The notes below the pieces were generated by a model. That model was not told where the DNA came from. It did no database searches and saw nothing but the letters and a program-made list of their open reading frames with translations. From contig OZ244048.1 of the NCBI GenBank assembly GCA_965215265.1, positions 1,376,001-1,440,000 of the forward strand: a stretch of 64,000 nt of DNA. The letters run 5' to 3'. The position numbers and the translations under genes are program-made. The stretch comes from Candidatus Poribacteria bacterium. GTDB taxonomy: Bacteria; Poribacteria; WGA-4E; WGA-3G. Each line of letters opens with the position of its first letter. Position 1 is the stretch's first letter. Positions 38,250 to 48,062 of the stretch are shown here, piece by piece.

Positions 38250-39260
38250 CTATTTTGACGTTTCGAACGTGTTAAGAAAATTCACCAGATCTGCACCATG
38301 GGTACTGGGATTAACCTGTTTATCAACCTTTAGGATTTTCCCAGCTTTATCGATCACAACGGTTATCCGTTTAATAGAACCGTCGGGGGTCTCTGTTGCG
38401 CCGAAAAGTAACGCGAGATGCCGCCCGGTGTCTACCAAAAGCGGAAAGTTCAGTTGATTTTCTGCAGCAAATTTTTGATGGGATTCTGCATCATTCAAGG
38501 TAATCCCGAATACTTGTGCGTCGTGTGCAGCAAAATGACTCGACTCATCACGGAGCGAGCAAACTTCTGCCGTTCAGCCCCGACCAAAATCACGTGGATA
38601 AAACGCCAAAACCACGTTTTTCTTACCGCGACATGCGCTGAGTTGGTGTGTTTCACCTGCACCGTCGGTTGCGATAAAATCCGGGGCCATTGCCCCAACT
38701 TCGACCTGCGGTAAGGTCTTTTTCAACAGTGCAACCACATCTTTACCGTGTGTCTTCACGTTGACCTCTCGATCGATTGCGCGGATATATCCAGCCTTAT
38801 CAATGATGAAGGTGCTCCGTTTGGAGGCGTTAAAGCCTTCAATGATACCACTATACACCGTGCTCACTTTAAACTCTGTATCTGCAAGCAGTGAAAATTT
38901 ATAGTCTTGTGCGTCACAGAATTTCTGATGTGAGTCGACGGAGTCAACACTCACCCCCAAAAGCACGGTTCCTGTCGCTTCGAGCTCGCTCAAATTATCC
39001 CGGAGCGAGTTAAGCTCGGCTGTTCAGCCGCCGGTAAAATCTTTGGGGTAAAATGCGAGAACGACGTTTTTCTTTCCTAAGTAATCGCTCAGGCTGCGTT
39101 CAACGCCTTTCTCGTCTTTCAAGCTAAAATCGGGGGCAACCATACCTATCTGTAATTCACTCGGTTTTTCCATCTGATCCTCCGCTAAAACTGTTGGAAT
39201 CAAAAGGGCTGTCACGAGTAAAACAACCCAAACACGTAAATGTAATAGAATTTTAAACAT
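38250..39260 (-). CDS. Tandem BCP/PrxQ peroxiredoxin selenoprotein (336 aa, UGA-Sec at 39024-39026 and 38574-38576) with N-terminal signal peptide
   Basis: Three listed ORFs share one frame; FYPKDFTGG*TAEL and FYPRDFGRG*TAEVC put TGA exactly at the peroxidatic Cys; a hairpin follows each TGA. Confidence 0.88.
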
Positions 39261-39716: not shown

Positions 39717-40015
39717 TCAGGCAAAAAAAAAGTTTGCCAAAAAGTGTTATTTTCTGATAGAATGTTTTCGTTGATTTTTTATTTCGGAAAAAAAGTTGAC
39801 AAACAAACGTTCGTTATGCGATAATGCAAAACAACTTTTGAGTGATGCAAAAAAAAGTTTGACAAAAAGTGTTGTTTTCGGCTAAAATGTGTTCGTCTCT
39901 TTTTTATTTCGAAAAAAAAGAGTTGACAAAAAAATGTTCATTGTGCGATAATGCAAAACAACTTTTGAGTCAGGCAAAAAAAAGTTTGCCAAAAAACGTT
40001 GTTTTCGGCTAAACT
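39717..40015 (+). promoter_or_regulatory. Tandem array of five sigma70-like promoters (about 63-bp period, about 126-bp higher-order repeat)
   Basis: TTGCCA/TTGACA at 39734, 39796, 39859, 39923 and 39986; each is preceded by an A-tract and followed 18 bp later by TAGAAT, GATAAT, TAAAAT, GATAAT or TAAACT. Confidence 0.7.
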
Positions 40016-40029
40016 GAAAGATACGAATT

Positions 40030-40187
40030 TTTGTATATCTCGGTACTATACCGGTTTATGTTATCTTAAATCGGATGTAAATCTCGCCAGAGCCATCTTA
40101 TGTTATGAATCAAAACATCGGAAAACTTCGGGCGAGATTTGTAAAAAGAGACTCATTAAATCTGTCGGTGCTGAAATATACGAAAAA
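40030..40187. repeat. Family-1 repeat unit
   Basis: TTTGTATATCTCGGTAC...AAATCTCGCC...GGCGAGATTT...GTGCTGAAATATACGAAAA. Confidence 0.85.
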
Positions 40188-40760
40188 CCTCGAATTCAGA
40201 CAGGGAAAAATTGAACAGATGAAACACCGAGAGTCCGTGTACCCCATAAGCAGAACGAGCTGCCCCGTGGTGCGGGGTTGTAGTTTTGGCACGAACGCGT
40301 GCGTACGCGGTGCTGTCGTGTGTTTTAAGTCCCTGTTAAGACGATTGACCCCCCCCCTTACTTCACATAAATTAACCCTTTTATTAACTCAGGCAGCATC
40401 TACATCTACCTTCGTTGCTGCTTTCTTATGCCTGCACGCCTCCCGTCTCGGACGGTGGGTGCCGTTGCGGGCTTTTTTTCTTGTGCGTGCGGTGTTCAGT
40501 TGCGGAGCCCCCGGGCTTCTGTATGCGGACCTGCCCGCCACGAACCCAGTTGGCTTATGCCAACGGTGCCGGTGTGTCAGTCGCCTCGGCACCCTACCTG
40601 ATAACACAAGTGCACTCACTCCTTAGAAAGAATAGAGAGTTAATTGTTGAAGTGGCGGAATCGAAGGCCGGTAACAAGGCATTAGCTACTGCAAATGAGA
40701 CACTGACAGCTGAAGTGACTGCAGCACCTGTAATGAATGACTAATAAAAGCGTGGCCGTA

Positions 40761-42032
40761 ATGTTTAGAATCTTATTTTTATTGCTGGCTAGTTCGCTGG
40801 CGGTTTGCCTGCTCAGCTGCGGATTTATTGAAGATGATGCTGAAGAAGAGGAGGCTCCCGCCGCGATCGAAAGCGTGACACCTTCCGGTGGTGAGCTTTC
40901 GGAAGATGGAAGCATCATAGTAACCTTTGACACCGATCCGGGCGATGTCAGCACCAGTGAGGGGTCTGTCTTCGGTGTGGGTAGGACTCGGGCCATCTCA
41001 GGTCCTTTTAGCCCCGGTGCGCTGGACTTGCGGCTCAACTGGTCAAATGGTGCAGGCAGCCTGACTTTGATTTACCAGGTCAAAGCAGCAAAAGCCAAGC
41101 CGCCGCCAGAGGGCATGGTGCTCATCCCCGGTGGTGCATTCCAGATGGGCAGCAACGATGCCGATGCCGGGAATGACGAGCAGCCTGTGCACACGGTGCA
41201 TGTGGACGCGTTCTACATGGATAAGCACGAGGTGACAAATCTGGAATACAAGCGGTTTGTGCTGGCGAACCCGCAGTGGCAAAAGACGCGCATCCCACGG
41301 GTGCTCCATAATGGTAATTACCTAAACGATTGGAGCGGTAATAACTATCCAGTGGGTAAGGCGAACCATCCTGTGGTATATGTGTCGTGGTATGGTGCGA
41401 TGGCATATTCCGCGTGGGCAGGTAAGCGTCTTCCGACGGAGGCAGAGTGGGAGAAAGCGGCACGGGGTGGGAAGTCAGGGTTAAAGTATCCGTGGGGGAA
41501 TACAATCTCCTCTGGGCATGCGAACTACGTTAGTAATGTAGGCGGTACAACGGCTGTGGGGAGTTATGCGTCGAACGGGTATGGGCTGTATGATATGACA
41601 GGGAACGTGTGGGAGTGGTGCCTGGATGCGTATGATTCGGATTTCTATTCAGAGTCTCCGTCTCGGAATCCGCTGAGTGACGTGAATACCATATCGAATC
41701 TGGATCTGATTGTAAAAAACTTTATGCATATTAAGTCTTCTCGCGTGTTGCGTGGCGGGAGTTGGTACGTTTTTACACGGCCCCTGCGTGTCGCCAATCG
41801 CCTCTGGAATTCTCCAGCGAGCACGTACAACGACTTCGGGTTCCGGTGCGCGAGGGCTGTCACGCCTCAAATCTTCACTCCTTGTCTCAAAAACACAAGG
41901 CATAGCCGGCGCAAAACCCGTGCGGCCTCTAAATGCCGCTCGCGACTTGGCATCACTATTGGTTGCGTACTGGTGAAGTTTCACCTAGTTTATATCGTTC
42001 ATAAAATTTTCTTCACTAAGTTTACAGTATAA
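40761..42032 (+). CDS. DGR target 1: lipoprotein with Ig-like domain and FGE-sulfatase/C-type lectin domain; stop codon lost (54-aa extension)
   Basis: LLSC lipobox; GMVLIPGGAFQMG, RLPTEAEWEKAARGG, GLYDMTGNVWEW and RVLRGGSW...GFRC motifs; its 3' end aligns to the TR. Confidence 0.9.
   Translation: MFRILFLLLASSLAVCLLSCGFIEDDAEEEEAPAAIESVTPSGGELSEDGSIIVTFDTDPGDVSTSEGSVFGVGRTRAISGPFSPGALDLRLNWSNGAGSLTLIYQVKAAKAKPPPEGMVLIPGGAFQMGSNDADAGNDEQPVHTVHVDAFYMDKHEVTNLEYKRFVLANPQWQKTRIPRVLHNGNYLNDWSGNNYPVGKANHPVVYVSWYGAMAYSAWAGKRLPTEAEWEKAARGGKSGLKYPWGNTISSGHANYVSNVGGTTAVGSYASNGYGLYDMTGNVWEWCLDAYDSDFYSESPSRNPLSDVNTISNLDLIVKNFMHIKSSRVLRGGSWYVFTRPLRVANRLWNSPASTYNDFGFRCARAVTPQIFTPCLKNTRHSRRKTRAASKCRSRLGITIGCVLVKFHLVYIVHKIFFTKFTV
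41742..41855 (+). repeat. DGR variable repeat VR1
   Basis: 114-bp gapless match to the TR; most differences are at TR adenines, plus 7 non-A differences. Confidence 0.85.
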
Positions 42033-42065
42033 CTTAATTAATTTAGAGTATAAAAGGAAAATAAA

Positions 42066-43196
42066 ATGTTTAGAATCTTATTTTTATTGATGGCCACCTC
42101 GCTGGCGGTTGGCCTGCTCAGCTGCGGATTTATTGAAGACGATGCTGAAGAAGAAGAGGCTCCCGCCGCGTTCCAAAGCGCGACACCGTCCGGTGGTGAG
42201 CTTGCGGAAGATGGGAGCATCACAGTAACCTTTGACACCGATCCGGGCGATGTCAGCACCAGTGAGGGGTCTGTTTCCGGTGTGGGTAGGACTCGGAGCA
42301 TCTCAGGTCCTTTTAGCCGCGGTGCGCTGAACTTGCGGCTCAACTGGGCAAATGGTGCAGGCAGCCTGACTTTGACTTACCAGGTCAAAGCGAAAGTAGA
42401 AACCGCAGTTGAGAAGGAGAGAGAGGTGCCTGAAGGAATGGTGCTCATCCCCGGTGGTGCATTCCGGATGGGCAGCAACGATGCCGAGGCCGATAATGAT
42501 GAGCAGCCTGTGCATACGGTGCATGTGGACGCGTTCTACATGGACACGCATGAGGTGACGAATCTGGAATACAAGCGTTTTGTGCTGGCGAACCCCCAAT
42601 GGCAAAAGACGCGTATCCCACGGGCGCTCCATAATGGTAATTACCTAAAACATTGGAGTGGTAATAACTATCCTTCGGGTAAAGCGAACCATCCTGTGAC
42701 GTATGTGTCGTGGTATGGTGCGATGGCGTATGCTGCGTGGGCAGGTAAACGTCTTCCGACGGAGGCGGAGTGGGAGAAAGCGGCGCGGGGTGGGAAGTCA
42801 GGGTTAAAGTATCCGTGGGGGAATACAATCTCCTCTGCGCGTGCGAACTATGGTGGTAATGTAGGGGACACGCGTCCTGTGGGGAGTTATGCGTCGAACG
42901 GGTATGGGCTGTATGACATGGCCGGGAACGTGTGGGAGTGGTGTCTTGATGCGTATGATTCGGATTTCTATTTTAATTCGCCGTCTCGTAATCCGCTGAG
43001 CGACGTGAACACCATATCGAATCTGGATCTGATTGTAAATGACTATACACATGTTAAGTCTCTTCGCGTGTTGCGCGGCGGTGGCTGGTACGATCTTACA
43101 CGCTACCTGCGCGCCGCTAATCGCCTCTGGGATTCACCAACGATCACGAACTTCAACAGCTTCGGGTTCCGGTGTGCGAGGGCTGTTACTCCTTAA
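42066..43196 (+). CDS. DGR target 2: lipoprotein with Ig-like and FGE-sulfatase/C-type lectin domains
   Basis: Close paralogue of target 1 with an LLSC lipobox and a VR at the C-terminus. Confidence 0.93.
   Translation: MFRILFLLMATSLAVGLLSCGFIEDDAEEEEAPAAFQSATPSGGELAEDGSITVTFDTDPGDVSTSEGSVSGVGRTRSISGPFSRGALNLRLNWANGAGSLTLTYQVKAKVETAVEKEREVPEGMVLIPGGAFRMGSNDAEADNDEQPVHTVHVDAFYMDTHEVTNLEYKRFVLANPQWQKTRIPRALHNGNYLKHWSGNNYPSGKANHPVTYVSWYGAMAYAAWAGKRLPTEAEWEKAARGGKSGLKYPWGNTISSARANYGGNVGDTRPVGSYASNGYGLYDMAGNVWEWCLDAYDSDFYFNSPSRNPLSDVNTISNLDLIVNDYTHVKSLRVLRGGGWYDLTRYLRAANRLWDSPTITNFNSFGFRCARAVTP
43065..43181 (+). repeat. DGR variable repeat VR2
   Basis: All substitutions versus the TR (about 19) fall at TR adenines; one extra codon in the AAC run. 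Confidence 0.95.
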
Positions 43197-43217
43197 ATCT
43201 TTACTCCTTTACCCCTT

Positions 43218-43237
43218 CCGATCTGCGTGCAGATCGG
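43218..43237 (+). promoter_or_regulatory. Hairpin/cruciform downstream of VR2 (candidate DGR homing signal)
   Basis: Perfect inverted repeat CCGATCTG-CGTG-CAGATCGG about 20 bp after the stop codon, the position of the known DGR target-recognition hairpin. Confidence 0.7.
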
Positions 43238-43470
43238 GTCGATACAATTTTTTAACTATGAGTTAAAAATCAGTTAGAAATAGGGTAAAATATTAACTAT
43301 ATGTTAATTATCTGCTTATTTTTTGCTTGGTGCGTGCTGTAACCGGTGCGTTTTTGTGGCAAGTCCCGAATTTTATCCGGCTCGGTTTTTTTTTCGGGGT
43401 GTATCCGTGGCTGTACCGATATTAGGTTTAGCAATTCGGGTGGCCGGTGTGAGAATGTGGATTGGGTAGC

Positions 43471-43818
43471 ATGCCAACATCTACGACTACGATGAAAGCG
43501 GTTCCGAAATTATACGATGTGGTAATGTGGCTATTAGGCTGTGTGGAGAAATTCCCGCGTTCTCATAAGTTTACGCTGGGTGACAGAGTGGTGACTCTTG
43601 CGCTGGATATATTGGAGTTGCTGATAGAAGCGACCTATACGCGGAATAGGCTTCCGCTGCTGCGTCAAGCGAACGTGCAGCTGGAGAAACTCCGTTATCT
43701 GATTCGGTTGTGCCACGACTTCAAACTGATTTCAACGAAGCAGTACAACTATATTTCGGGTGAAATCAACGAAGTAGGGCAGCGAATCGGCGGGTGGATT
43801 AAGAGTCAATCTGCCTGA
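43471..43818 (+). CDS. avd: DGR accessory variability determinant Avd (four-helix bundle)
   Basis: KLYDVVMWL..VEKFPRSHKFTLGDR...LEKLRYLIRL...EVGQRIGGWIK; directly upstream of the RT. Confidence 0.93.
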   Translation: MPTSTTTMKAVPKLYDVVMWLLGCVEKFPRSHKFTLGDRVVTLALDILELLIEATYTRNRLPLLRQANVQLEKLRYLIRLCHDFKLISTKQYNYISGEINEVGQRIGGWIKSQSA

Positions 43819-43885
43819 GGCTGAAAAATCCTTGTTTTCCCTGCTGGTTCTCTTTATGAGAGGCATCTTATAGTTCAAGTTGACG

Positions 43886-44944
43886 ATGAAAACGTATAAT
43901 AGGCTGTTTGAACAGATCTGCTCGTTTGAGAATCTGCTAGTCGCTGCGCGTAAAGCGCAGCGTGGGAAGCGTTTTCAAGACGAAGTGGCGCGTTTCAACT
44001 TTCACTTGGAGCGTGAGCTATACCGCTTGCAGGCGGAGCTGCAGACGCAAAGCTATGAGCCGGGTGGCTATCATGAGTTTCATATCTACGAGCCGAAGTT
44101 GCGTAAGATTAGCGCAGCGCCTTATCGTGACAGGGTTGTCCATCACGCGTTGTGCAACGTTGTAGAGCCGCTTTTCGACCGGACGTTCATTTTTGATTCC
44201 TACGCGTGTCGGAAAGGGAAGGGTACGCATAAAGCCGTGGACCGGTTTACAGGATTCAGCCGCAAGACTGAGTATGTGCTGAAGTGTGACATTAGAAAGT
44301 ATTTTCCGTCAATCGACCACGAGATTCTGAAGACGCTGTTTCGCCGGAAGATTCGGGATGTAAAAACCTTGTGGTTGATGGATGTGATTGTTGATAGTAG
44401 TAACCGTCAGGAAAATGTGATAGGCTACTTTGACGGGGATACGCTATTGACACCGCTGTGGCGGCGGCGCGGCATTCCGATCGGGAATCTGACGAGTCAG
44501 TTTTTCGCGAATATCTATCTGAACGGTTTTGACCATTTTGTGAAAGAGCAGCTACAGTGTCGCTACTACATCCGTTATGTGGACGATTTCGTGGTGCTTG
44601 ACAGGGACAAGTCGCGGCTGCATGAAGTCAAAGTGGAGATGGTCTCCTACTTGGCGCGGCTGCGGCTGCAGTTACACCCGCACAAGTGCCAGGTTTTTCC
44701 GGTGAAAAGCGGCACGGATTTTTTGGGGTATCAGGTGTTCCCGACACATCGTAGGCTCCGGGCATCCTCTGTGACGCGTGCACGGCGGCGTTTGCGGCGG
44801 CTGCAAAGGGATTACCGCGTAGGTAAGATTTCACAAGAGCAGGTGACTCATTCGGTGCAAAGTTGGCTTGGCCATATTCAGCATGCGGACACGTATGGAC
44901 TGCGTCGGGCAATCTTTTCGGATATCCGTTTTCAGCGTTCATGA
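43886..44944 (+). CDS. DGR reverse transcriptase
   Basis: [48 protein letters not shown] (DGR-type SQ), YIRYVDDF and DFLGY motifs. Confidence 0.96.
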
Positions 44945-45031
44945 AGTGAAGCGTCAAAGCGTTTCAGAGTTTAAAAAGCGTGTCGCTTCTCAGCACGAGC
45001 TGGAGAAGCCCACGGGGTCTCAAGCCGAGCA

Positions 45032-45148
45032 TCTCGCGTGTTGCGCGGCGGTAGCTGGAACAATAATACACGAAACCTGCGCGCCGCTAATCGCAACAGG
45101 AATACACCAACGAACACGAACAACAACAACGGGTTCCGGTGTGCGAAG
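45032..45148 (+). ncRNA. DGR template repeat (TR)
   Basis: AAC/AAT-rich copy of both VRs: CGCGTGTTGCGCGGCGGTAGCTGGAACAATAAT...AACAACAACAACGGGTTCCGGTGTGCG. Confidence 0.95.
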
Positions 45149-45270
45149 ACCCTTTCCGAGAGGTTAGCATCTTTCGGGGTTGCCAGAGTTGGTGTGCCTC
45201 CGAGGTAGGTGAGTCACATCAAGTGTGCATCGCTAAAGAGTCCAAGGCTTGATACCTGTGTTCATCTCTC

Positions 45271-45350
45271 TGTGAGATGTGCCAAAGATAAAACCCGGGG
45301 TGTGATGGTGAGTAGGCAGTGTGCCGAATGTTATCACACCTCTTTCTCTT
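45271..45350 (+). repeat. 80-bp hairpin element, copy 1 (downstream of the TR)
   Basis: GGTGTGATGGTG-AGTAGGCAGTGTGCCGAA-TGTTATCACACC; near-identical copies at 46711 and 48183. Confidence 0.85.
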
Positions 45351-45465
45351 TTTTCTCTGCCTGATTTCTCTTTGCTTGACAATGATTCCCTGATGTGTTA
45401 TTATAAAGACAGAGTCGTTTTGAGAAGGGAAGCCCTTGACAACTGATACGTTTTAGGAGTATAAT

Positions 45466-46590
45466 ATGCAGAAAGGGGACATCCACGACTTTTTGTCCGA
45501 GATGTCTGTTTCGAACTTTTCCGATCGGAGCATACGCCGCTTATTAGAAAACAAGGAAAACGTCCGGGGCTTGCTAGAAATCGTTGCGGCAGAACTCGCC
45601 GCGTTGATTGATTTTGCGCATCTGGTTCCAATGAATAGGAGCCTGCTGCCCGCCACTCTTCGAGAACAAGAGGCAGACATTGTGTATCGGGTGCCCTTCA
45701 AAAGTGATGGTGATGAGGGTGCGGCAGAGCTGCTCATCTATCTGCTGATTGAACATCAATCGACGGTGGATGCGACGATGGGATTTCGTGTGCTTTTCTA
45801 CATGATGCTGATTTGGGACGCAGAGCGGCGGCGGTGGGCGGCCGAGACGGTGCCGAGAAGAGAGCGTGTATTGCCGCCGATTCTGCCTGTGGTGTTTTAC
45901 ACGGGGGAGCGGCGGTGGGAGAAGCCTCTGACACTTGAGGCGCTGATGAATCTGCCCGCCGCACTCTCTAGATTCGTTCCGAGATTTGACATCCTGTTTC
46001 TGAATCTGACAGGCACAGACAAGGCGACGCTGACAGAGGCGGCGCATCCATTCGGGTGGCTGATGAGAGTGCTGCAACAAGGAGATTCGGACAAAGCGTC
46101 TATAAGCCGGGCGTTACGAGAGACTTTGACGCAGTTGGCGACACTTGATGCGGCGGATTCAGGGCAGCGGCGGGAAGCGATAATGTATCTGGTATCGCTG
46201 ATTGTGCATCGGCGCCCAAAGGAAGAACAAGAAGAGTTGATAGAGTTGATAGACCGGCATACGAGTGATATGGAGGTAGCACCGATGGCAGAGACAATGG
46301 CCGAATTCCTCTTCGAACGAGGCATAGCACAAGGGATGGAACGAGGCATAGCACAAGGGATTGAACGAGGCATTGAACGAGGCATAGAACGAGGGAGAGA
46401 ACAAGGGGCGTGCCAGAATGCTATCAAAAATATAACCGCCGTCCTCAATGCGCGATTCCCTCATTGTGACATACACACTGCCACGCAGAAACTCGAAACG
46501 CTTTCTAACCTTGAACACCTCGAGCACCTGCTGCTGACAGCCGTCAAAGCCGATAGCTTTCAAGCATTCCTACAGGCATTAGAACTATAG
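45466..46590 (+). CDS. Rpn family recombination-promoting nuclease / Transposase_31-like (PD-(D/E)XK), copy 1
   Basis: EADIVYRV, LLIEHQST, LPPILPVVFYTG and a C-terminal (ERGI)n coil. Confidence 0.9.
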   Translation: MQKGDIHDFLSEMSVSNFSDRSIRRLLENKENVRGLLEIVAAELAALIDFAHLVPMNRSLLPATLREQEADIVYRVPFKSDGDEGAAELLIYLLIEHQSTVDATMGFRVLFYMMLIWDAERRRWAAETVPRRERVLPPILPVVFYTGERRWEKPLTLEALMNLPAALSRFVPRFDILFLNLTGTDKATLTEAAHPFGWLMRVLQQGDSDKASISRALRETLTQLATLDAADSGQRREAIMYLVSLIVHRRPKEEQEELIELIDRHTSDMEVAPMAETMAEFLFERGIAQGMERGIAQGIERGIERGIERGREQGACQNAIKNITAVLNARFPHCDIHTATQKLETLSNLEHLEHLLLTAVKADSFQAFLQALEL

Positions 46591-46925: not shown

Positions 46926-48062
46926 ATGCAAAAGGGGGACATCCACGACTTTTTGTCCGAGATGTCTGTTTCGAACTTTTCCGATCGGAGCATACGCCGC
47001 TTATTAGAAAACAAGGAAAACGTCCGGGGCTTGTTAGAAATCGTGTCGGCAGAACTCGCCGCGTTGATTGATTTTGCGCATCTGGTTCCAATGAATAGGA
47101 GCCTGCTGCCCGCCACTCTTCGAGAACAAGAGGCAGACATTGTGTATCGGGTGCCCTTCAAAAGTGATGGTGATGAGGGTGCGGCAGAGCTGCTCATCTA
47201 TCTGCTGATTGAACATCAATCGACGGTGGATGCGACGATGGGATTTCGTGTGCTTTTCTACATGATGCTAATTTGGGACGCAGAGCGGCGGCGGTGGGCG
47301 GCCGAGACGGTGCCGAGAAGAGAGCGTGTATTGCCGCCGATTCTGCCTGTGGTGTTTTACACGGGGGAGCGGCGGTGGGAGAAGCCTCTGACACTTGAGG
47401 CGATGATGAATCTGCCCGCGGCGCTCTCTCGATTCGTTCCGAGATTTGACATCCTGTTTCTGAATCTGACAGGCACAGACAAGGCGACGCTGACAGAGGC
47501 GGCGCATCCGTTCGGGTGGCTGATGAGAGTGCTGCAACAAGGAGATTCGGACAAAGCGTCTATAAGCCGCGCGTTACGAGAGACTTTGACGCAGTTGGCG
47601 GCGCTTGATGCGGCGGATTCTGGGCAGCGTAGGGAAGCGATAATGTATCTGGTATCGCTGATTGTGCATCGGCGCCCAAAGGAAGAACAAGAAGAGTTGA
47701 TAGAGTTGATAGACCGGCATACGCGTGATATGGAGGTAGCACCGATGGCAGAGACAATGGCCGAATTCCTCTTAGAACGAGGCATAGCACAAGGCATGGA
47801 ACGAGGCATAGAACAAGGCATAGAACGAGGCATAGAACGAGGCATAGAACGAGGGCGAGAAGAAGGGATTGAGCGAGGGGCGTGCCAGAATGCTATCAAA
47901 AATATAACCGCCGTCCTCAATGCGCGATTCCCTCATTGTGACATACACACTGCCACGCAGAAACTCGAAACGCTTTCTAACCTTGAACACCTCGAGCACC
48001 TGCTGCTGACAGCCGTCAAAACCGACAGTTTTGAAGCATTTCTACAAGCGTCAGAACTATAG
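46926..48062 (+). CDS. Rpn family nuclease, copy 2 (near-identical tandem duplicate, offset 1460 bp)
   Basis: Nearly identical to copy 1, with one extra 12-bp repeat unit. Confidence 0.9.
   Translation: MQKGDIHDFLSEMSVSNFSDRSIRRLLENKENVRGLLEIVSAELAALIDFAHLVPMNRSLLPATLREQEADIVYRVPFKSDGDEGAAELLIYLLIEHQSTVDATMGFRVLFYMMLIWDAERRRWAAETVPRRERVLPPILPVVFYTGERRWEKPLTLEAMMNLPAALSRFVPRFDILFLNLTGTDKATLTEAAHPFGWLMRVLQQGDSDKASISRALRETLTQLAALDAADSGQRREAIMYLVSLIVHRRPKEEQEELIELIDRHTRDMEVAPMAETMAEFLLERGIAQGMERGIEQGIERGIERGIERGREEGIERGACQNAIKNITAVLNARFPHCDIHTATQKLETLSNLEHLEHLLLTAVKTDSFEAFLQASEL

Follow-up and report, generated by a model that had tools for sequence, protein, structure and literature searches.

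A chromosomal diversity-generating retroelement of a Poribacteria genome and its dispersed family of probable lectin-fold targets

A single cassette with an adenine-limited variable repeat

A stretch of 64,000 nucleotides from a Candidatus Poribacteria chromosome (hereafter the window; contig OZ244048.1 of assembly GCA_965215265.1, positions 1,376,001 to 1,440,000) carries a diversity-generating retroelement (DGR), with its reverse transcriptase (RT), template repeat (TR) and two variable repeats (VR1 and VR2). Our reading, to which we give a probability of about 0.8, is that this is the single working DGR of this Poribacteria-family chromosome, that VR2 and remote genes are written by it in trans, and that copies which lose their hairpin or stop codon retire.

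Sequence analysis of the window finds the cassette in the order target1-target2-hairpin-avd-RT-TR, with all its parts intact as a cassette. This is the complete chromosomal element of the preliminary description, a reading of the letters alone, with which both the coordinates and the protein families agree. All features lie on the forward strand, and positions are those of the window unless given as genome positions. The accessory gene avd (43462-43818) matches NF033474 with 120 bits against a cut-off of 80, and the RT gene (43880-44944) has an open frame of 354 residues, an RVT_1 match of 84 bits and YVDD at residue 233. The 4.83-Mb single-contig genome holds this one RT and this sole copy of avd. 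TR (45034-45146) begins 90 nt after the RT stop codon; its 113 nt include 35 adenines and 12 AAC/AAT codons, and its 18 codons with variable residues allow about 10^17.6 peptide variants.

VR2 (43064-43179) lies at the end of the target2 gene (42066-43196), the probable current target within the cassette. In a gapped alignment with TR, it has 18 substitutions, each opposite a TR adenine, and none at the 78 non-adenine positions (P=1.3e-11 for all 18 landing by chance on the 35 adenines). The signature of adenine-specific retrohoming noted beforehand is thus borne out, and the five codon changes quoted for VR2 are all found. The statement that VR2 differs only at adenines holds for its substitutions, but it missed an additional in-frame 3-nt insertion within an AAC run. 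Such 3-nt indels beside AAC are reported for DGRs in PMC5758913 (here and below, literature statements refer to the covered passages of each source). The avd-RT-TR part (43310-45300) is identical in contigs of two runs, perhaps from the source sample, where TR is likewise without the extra AAC.

VR2 and TR have in common a G/C-rich block (43163-43179), after which a tail of VR2 runs to the stop codon of target2 and diverges from the sequence following TR. After PMC5758913, the segment 43163-43196 may be labelled an initiation of mutagenic homing (IMH) region. A perfect inverted repeat with an 8-bp stem and a 4-nt loop (43218-43237) begins 38 nt past the end of VR2. The locus therefore combines the features by which DGRs are recognized, namely: an intact RT beside TR; an adenine-limited TR/VR pair; avd; an IMH-like tail with an inverted repeat; and a VR at the C-terminus of a target whose sequence matches a CLec (C-type lectin) fold. 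Taken together, these features support a chromosomal DGR with adenine-specific retrohoming onto a putatively exported lectin-fold protein. VR2 would be rewritten at present, and TR would be transcribed.

Variable repeats throughout the chromosome

The genome was searched for additional remote VRs, as the preliminary description had suggested. Besides TR itself there are 45 TR-like sites, 33 of which, at 17 loci, bear the signature with no more than 12 non-adenine differences from TR. In the AAC/AAT codons of these 33 sites, 507 of 780 cases at positions 1 and 2 are changed, against 11 of 392 at position 3. As a control, paralog pairs that differ at codon positions 1-2 were compared at position 3, where 42% of cases in the domain body and 6% in the VR differ (30 sites). 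Four sites have no non-adenine difference at all, namely: VR2 and those at genome positions 1795833, 4150365 and 4795104; six sites have at most one. The three remote ones lie 0.38-2.7 Mb from the cassette. All four have an identical hairpin, although identity over the 600 nt upstream is only 78-89%, and they fall on separate branches of the tree.

Alleles in other assemblies add to this. P0010, an allele of the gene at genome 4795104, differs from it at 10 of the first 27 VR residues and, ahead of the VR, at 1 of 450; P0010 is in frame, whereas the 4795104 gene is frameshifted in this assembly. The allele pair of the paralog at 762416 likewise has an excess of differences in the VR (p 4e-5) vs. 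8 of 326 residues upstream. The allele look-ups were made in a protein collection in which 4 of 9 and 6 of 10 query proteins had no entry. Judging from these patterns, a single template source wrote the tips of some 33 related domains chromosome-wide.

The alternative that survives best, itself improbable, is that the cassette is intact and inactive and that all VRs are historical. Two related genomes, G002 and G006, have lost RT and keep targets, so that decay is common; against this, RT, avd, TR and a conserved stretch 3′ of TR are all intact here, four VRs are free of drift at non-adenine positions, and conspecific alleles differ specifically in a VR. We regard as still less probable that only the in-cassette gene ever retrohomed, the remote VRs being snapshots spread by duplication or gene conversion and VR2 having changed since. 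The remote targets do have about 209 nt of 3′ flank in common with VR2, plus upstream DNA, and paralog alleles are mosaic. However, the flanks of the three remote VRs without any non-adenine difference differ from that of VR2 at 23-29 of 145 nt, the domain bodies of these targets are only 78-81% identical to target2, and a remote gene is hypervariable between alleles in its VR alone. Rewriting in trans remains the preferred reading for these genes.

Some further observations concern the family. A 3′-to-5′ polarity of old vs. new template states was sought among the sites, with no clean pattern, and two VR-like fragments on contigs of other runs are absent from the genome and not attributable to a locus. 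One candidate allele, P0129, proved to be an unrelated fragment; P0131, an allele of genome 3732661 from another assembly, stops at the start of its VR, so that broken VR alleles occur elsewhere too. The frameshift deletions in the best-matching VRs (genome 4150365 and 4795104: 5 nt; net +2 nt; L102:5955-6064 in G006: 1 nt) sit opposite TR adenines. They are either slips of the RT or consensus errors at heterogeneous columns, and gap placement is biased by alignment scoring.

The first gene of the tandem is a retired target

The target1 gene (40761-42032, with an alternative ATG at 40737) contains VR1 (41741-41853), which differs from TR at 19 of the 35 adenines and 7 of the 78 non-adenine positions (p 4e-7). 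The computed alignment thus finds the adenine bias exclusive among the substitutions of VR2, and accompanied by seven non-adenine differences in VR1. These seven form a haplotype common to other paralogs, of which VR1 has every state and no further one; 100 of the 174 non-adenine differences among the 33 paralogous sites fall on seven positions with shared states. Because two of the seven states occur in the TRs of all three relatives with a TR to compare (G004, G006 and G024), they are probably ancestral, and VR1 probably bears an older template haplotype.

The former stop codon of target1 is now CAA (41868-41870; TAA in paralogs), which adds 55 residues, and VR1 has no downstream hairpin. 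Two other target1 alleles have 22-23 residue differences upstream and 0 of 37 in VR1, in contrast with the remote allele pair at genome 4795104; the read-through tail is kept in all three. Since VR1 bears the older haplotype and is unchanged among three alleles, the diversification of tandem lipoproteins, as first described, holds for target2 and only historically for target1, which, on this evidence of non-adenine differences, lost signals and unchanged alleles, is a retired target.

An account in which both tandem genes are live and VR1 acquired its non-adenine differences through non-canonical mutagenesis would explain the strong adenine bias of its mismatches, and a target with seven non-adenine differences is interpreted in that way in PMC5758913. 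It is largely refuted, and very improbable, given that the seven differences match many paralogs in letter and site, that VR1 is identical in three alleles with hairpin and stop gone, and that contigs of three runs (two perhaps from the source sample) cover most or all of VR1 with no difference inside it.

Signals downstream of the repeats and the dispersal of targets

The 8-bp hairpin of VR2 has a z-score of -2.85 vs. shuffles, and none of its kind is found after TR or VR1. Downstream of TR, about 170 nt of non-coding DNA that end in a long hairpin and a T-run are conserved in four related Poribacteria DGR loci. Within it, the single-copy stretch 45175-45275 is probably the priming part of the DGR RNA, and 45297-45356, the long hairpin with its T-rich run, is probably the terminator. 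The stretch folds no better than shuffles (z -0.5 and -1.2), and 1 of 50 consensus pairs covaries in an alignment of four close sequences only, so that its structure stays predicted.

The terminator-like repeat has 23 copies in the genome and lies within 400 nt of 10 of the 17 target loci (random expectation 0.4%). Other copies flank Rpn genes, one following each of the two Rpn genes of the window; G004, G006 and G024 have 1-4 copies each. Remote loci resemble the cassette minus avd-RT-TR between the flank of VR2 and this repeat. On the other side, an upstream block (39724-40760) is homologous to DNA 5′ of about ten remote target loci; its first part, 39724-40047, consists of three repeats of ~126 nt with four near-consensus sigma-70-type promoter matches and is reused 5′ of many targets.

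Two tandem Rpn/YhgA-like genes (45466-46590 and 46926-48062) are associated with the core DGR and lie outside it. Such open reading frames (ORFs) number 34 genome-wide and lie within 2.5 kb of 7 of the 17 target loci (random expectation 3.9%). The closest Rpn subfamily, which occurs in repeat-bounded tandem units, may help to disperse targets or may merely ride along.

Two kinds of gene near or within such loci were also noted. PA14-like genes without a CLec domain at genome 2998956-2999672 and 4393984-4394841 have the same 3′ end and hairpin and a scrap of VR, and would be target cassettes that lost their lectin domain or had it swapped. Duplicates of a 202-residue exported protein with a FlgD-Ig/T9SS-like (type IX secretion) C-terminal domain stand immediately upstream of five remote targets (L084:5000-5605, L085:2537-3142, L088:5329-5934, L089:2372-2977 and L092:4666-5271); similar genes precede targets in G004, G006 and G024, and none is present in the window.

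Working model

As established for DGRs, the RT and Avd proteins would copy an RNA of TR and its conserved 3′ stretch with errors opposite adenines. The cDNA would replace VRs that end in an IMH-like tail, a step whose signature is visible here and in which the downstream hairpin may help. The current targets would be VR2 and at least three distant genes, reached in trans; all four carry the signature, and one remote gene is hypervariable between alleles. Target genes would have been copied round the chromosome with the upstream block and their 3′ end, exchanging sequence with one another. On loss of the hairpin or the stop codon, a copy would cease to be rewritten and keep the variant of an older TR, target1 being such a copy. 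Several retired copies now appear as inner domains in proteins that have two or three lectin domains; this pattern is seen directly, and the order of events is conjectural.

A number of points weigh against this model. The cut-off of 12 non-adenine differences was set post hoc and leaves 12 sites aside, one with 14 such differences and eleven with 19-29. No allele of target2 was found (its protein cluster has one member), and variation at VR2 itself is presumed. Among the listed contig pieces of four runs none spans VR2, a negative without weight given 1145 further pieces beyond the listing. One VR residue of P0010 is unreachable via adenine changes, and this assembly has frameshifts in two of the four VRs that match best. 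The paralogs are mosaic, which makes their tree unreliable; between the three remote 3′ flanks there are just 2-9 substitutions in 145 nt. The 0 of 37 differences in VR1 is not significantly under background (p 0.15) and shows merely no excess. As for the hairpin, three sites with 8 non-adenine differences still have hairpins of 7-10 bp, and sites with 1 (in G004) and 0 (in G006) such differences lack a long perfect stem. The association of hairpin with non-adenine count has a Fisher p of 0.07 when dichotomized and a rank-test p of 0.006 on non-independent paralogs. A hairpin is not sufficient for target status, nor clearly needed.

The target proteins

Both targets have a hydrophobic leader with LLSC at its end, an acidic linker, a beta-sandwich and an FGE-type (formylglycine-generating enzyme) domain; target1 has its 55-residue read-through tail in addition. 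The FGE-type C-lectin domain described for both is matched by PF03781, and in a PDB sequence search a target matches the Treponema protein TvpA (2y3c) with an E-value of 7e-11. The lipobox is more equivocal: LLSC with Cys at residue 20 was read by eye, and its Leu at -2 is off the usual consensus. Lipidation, export and surface display of the targets are thus only presumed from the leaders.

The Ig-like stalk is supported by modelling. Residues 11-90 have an AlphaFold predicted local distance difference test (pLDDT) score of about 80-92, and the model resembles CopC, Ig and S-layer domains (Z 9.1 to 7.5, root-mean-square deviation 2-4 A); the stalk sequence has no match in Pfam, Atlas or PDB sequence searches. 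Single-sequence fold prediction gives a pLDDT of 31, and the CLec half of the aligned model stays under 50-70. The CLec assignment therefore rests on sequence, to which Foldseek matches of the low-confidence CLec model add nothing further.

In FGEs, the cysteine pair after the RGGS motif is catalytic. The CxxxxC segment of the FGE structure 6muj aligns to the variable region of target2, which has no cysteines there. Because the variable region replaces the cysteine segment of a true FGE, the targets would be binding modules like TvpA, not enzymes. That they are FGEs for the many sulfatases of the group, with the repeat incidental, can practically be dismissed, since the best PDB sequence matches and the labels of relatives in public records (FGE-family proteins) are outweighed by the missing cysteines and by an adenine signature incompatible with a conserved active site. 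The products are probably, for the most part, exported, non-catalytic binding modules. Their somewhat favoured use is to adhere to, or recognize, the surfaces of a host or of microbes; phage evasion or sensing is conceivable and clearly less likely.

Most target N-termini are export signals, dockerin, cohesin, PA14 or Ig domains, and the N-terminal partners also include caspase-like and C39 domains. Eight sites are internal or read-through, within proteins of two or three lectin domains. Proteins with several lectin domains are common among relatives: 57 of 127 stored proteins (P0011-P0127) have at least two of the FGE type. In the leaders of L084:5694-8591 and of other multi-domain targets a 13-residue unit occurs two or three times, which gives several possible starts, and one inner VR has an internal duplication of 33 nt. 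A separate array, L083:1043-13761 (genome 994000-1006800), has seven leaderless CLec genes interleaved with genes for dynamin-like GTPases and one TPR gene; it may represent a cytosolic, defence-type use, unlike the exported targets.

Comparison with known systems

The preliminary description had presented TR downstream of RT as a notable contrast. A survey of the best 80 RT relatives, 22 of which gave no TR call, shows that it is the norm in this lineage: TR lies downstream of RT in 52 of 58 loci, upstream of avd in 3 and between avd and RT in 2, and one further locus has TR downstream and was mislabelled through a second RT match. An unusual TR position is thereby ruled out. No close RT relative is among the 80 metagenome loci returned, the best being 65% identical.

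The avd-RT-TR order is the same as in architecture B2 of Wu et al. (PMC5758913). Their CLec1/FGE-sulfatase class likewise has 3-nt indels beside AAC, an inverted repeat after the IMH, remote targets more than 100 kb away and one target with three tandem FGE domains, so that the difference here is only one of scale and host phylum (supplementary tables may list more multi-target cases). Trichodesmium erythraeum IMS101 also has TR downstream of RT and FGE-type C-terminal targets. One TR with 12 VR genes is described there, some deemed retired by silent changes (PMC4143802); a later count gives 18 TR/VR loci for two DGRs and a caspase-domain target (PMC8867640). Here, in comparison, there are about 33 signature-bearing domains per one intact RT, and mostly export signals or dockerin, cohesin, PA14 or Ig domains where Trichodesmium targets have kinase N-termini.

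Treponema denticola resembles the present system in its FGE-type CLec lipoprotein targets (TvpA), remote targets, leftover VRs of another TR, and targets that outlast the core in strains (PMC4891356). It differs in its accessory gene, HRDC, and in its non-adjacent targets, up to seven in number (PMC5758913), as against avd and the avd-RT-TR order here. The RT is 55-60% identical to cyanobacterial RTs and likely belongs to clade 5 of Roux et al. on that account. The cellular and cyanobacterial DGRs of clade 5 (PMC7517822, PMC10907252) similarly have dispersed CLec paralogs, domain grafting and transposase-like neighbours. Their targets are described as mostly cytosolic and beside kinases, STAND or MoxR systems, whereas those here mostly look exported, and no kinase, STAND or MoxR gene is found among the 11 window ORFs scanned with Pfam. 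The BPP-1 and Legionella LdtA DGRs (via PMC5758913 and PMC4891356) likewise have avd, an IMH and a G/C-rich inverted repeat. Like the targets proposed here, LdtA is a variable surface lipoprotein; BPP-1 is a phage element with TR before RT and one target, in contrast to the chromosomal element with TR after RT.

Precedents thus exist for gene order, remote targets, retired VRs, indels and triple-domain targets, and the cassette alone is ordinary. A literature search found no report of Poribacteria DGRs among the papers listed; supplementary tables possibly have Poribacteria entries. Relative to the passages covered, the family size under one template and the phylum appear new: the 33 signature-bearing sites of one RT and one TR exceed the single-template sets of 12 in Trichodesmium and 7 remote targets in Treponema. 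The 33-site family offers a natural series in which to ask how a gene stays a target and how it comes to be retired. Quite tentatively, one template might act as a genome-wide repertoire writer that mutates several exported lectin genes at once, useful variants being locked by hairpin or stop loss and then fused into multivalent, dockerin-tagged proteins. This would be a heritable, antibody-like bank of binders with which a probable sponge symbiont recognizes host, neighbours or phages, and the 33 sites would be a datable record of successive templates.

The host and related genomes

A sponge habitat of the host is suggested by its phylum (PMC3909097). RT is present in 3 of the 61 genomes searched, this one included, and the closest RT (83%) is that of G004, a Poribacteria genome of the same family. 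A VR-end pattern has 32 matches here, 28 in G004, 11 in G002, 7 in G007, 6 in G006 and one each in four genomes, and zero in 52 of the 61, the congener G001 among them. It was built from the sites of this genome and understates other genomes: G024, whose cassette is intact, was missed. In G004, 26 sites were examined; 23 have at most 14 non-adenine differences and 2 at most one.

Decayed cassettes are found in two genomes. That of G006 (L102:6192-6660) keeps a target, the hairpin, a cut avd and TR, with RT deleted, and that of G002 (L111:5392-5760) keeps a target, the hairpin and an intact avd, with RT and TR gone; the two decays are independent. Three element-free genomes have 10, 19 and 24 FGE-family matches vs. 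40 in G002 and 43 in G004, counts from related genomes that are not independent. The system suggests that part of the expansion of FGE-like genes in Poribacteria is variable binding protein, not sulfatase-activating enzyme.

Surroundings of the cassette

The neighbours of the cassette are housekeeping genes and the two Rpn genes. In agreement with the earlier remark that no phage genes lie nearby, a PHROGs scan of 29 of the 53 long window ORFs (21.5-64 kb) found no phage structural, terminase or integrase families; its matches were only to RuvC, Rpn, tyrosyl-tRNA synthetase, DAHP synthase and unnamed families. A prophage-borne DGR is not supported, phage structural and integration genes being absent among the 29 ORFs scanned. 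An Rfam search of 39-49 kb gave just two sub-threshold microRNA matches, taken as chance. Upstream, at 38250-39260, a peroxiredoxin-like (AhpC/TSA) gene is present as several short ORF pieces with an 89-nt repeat and is possibly split or recoded.

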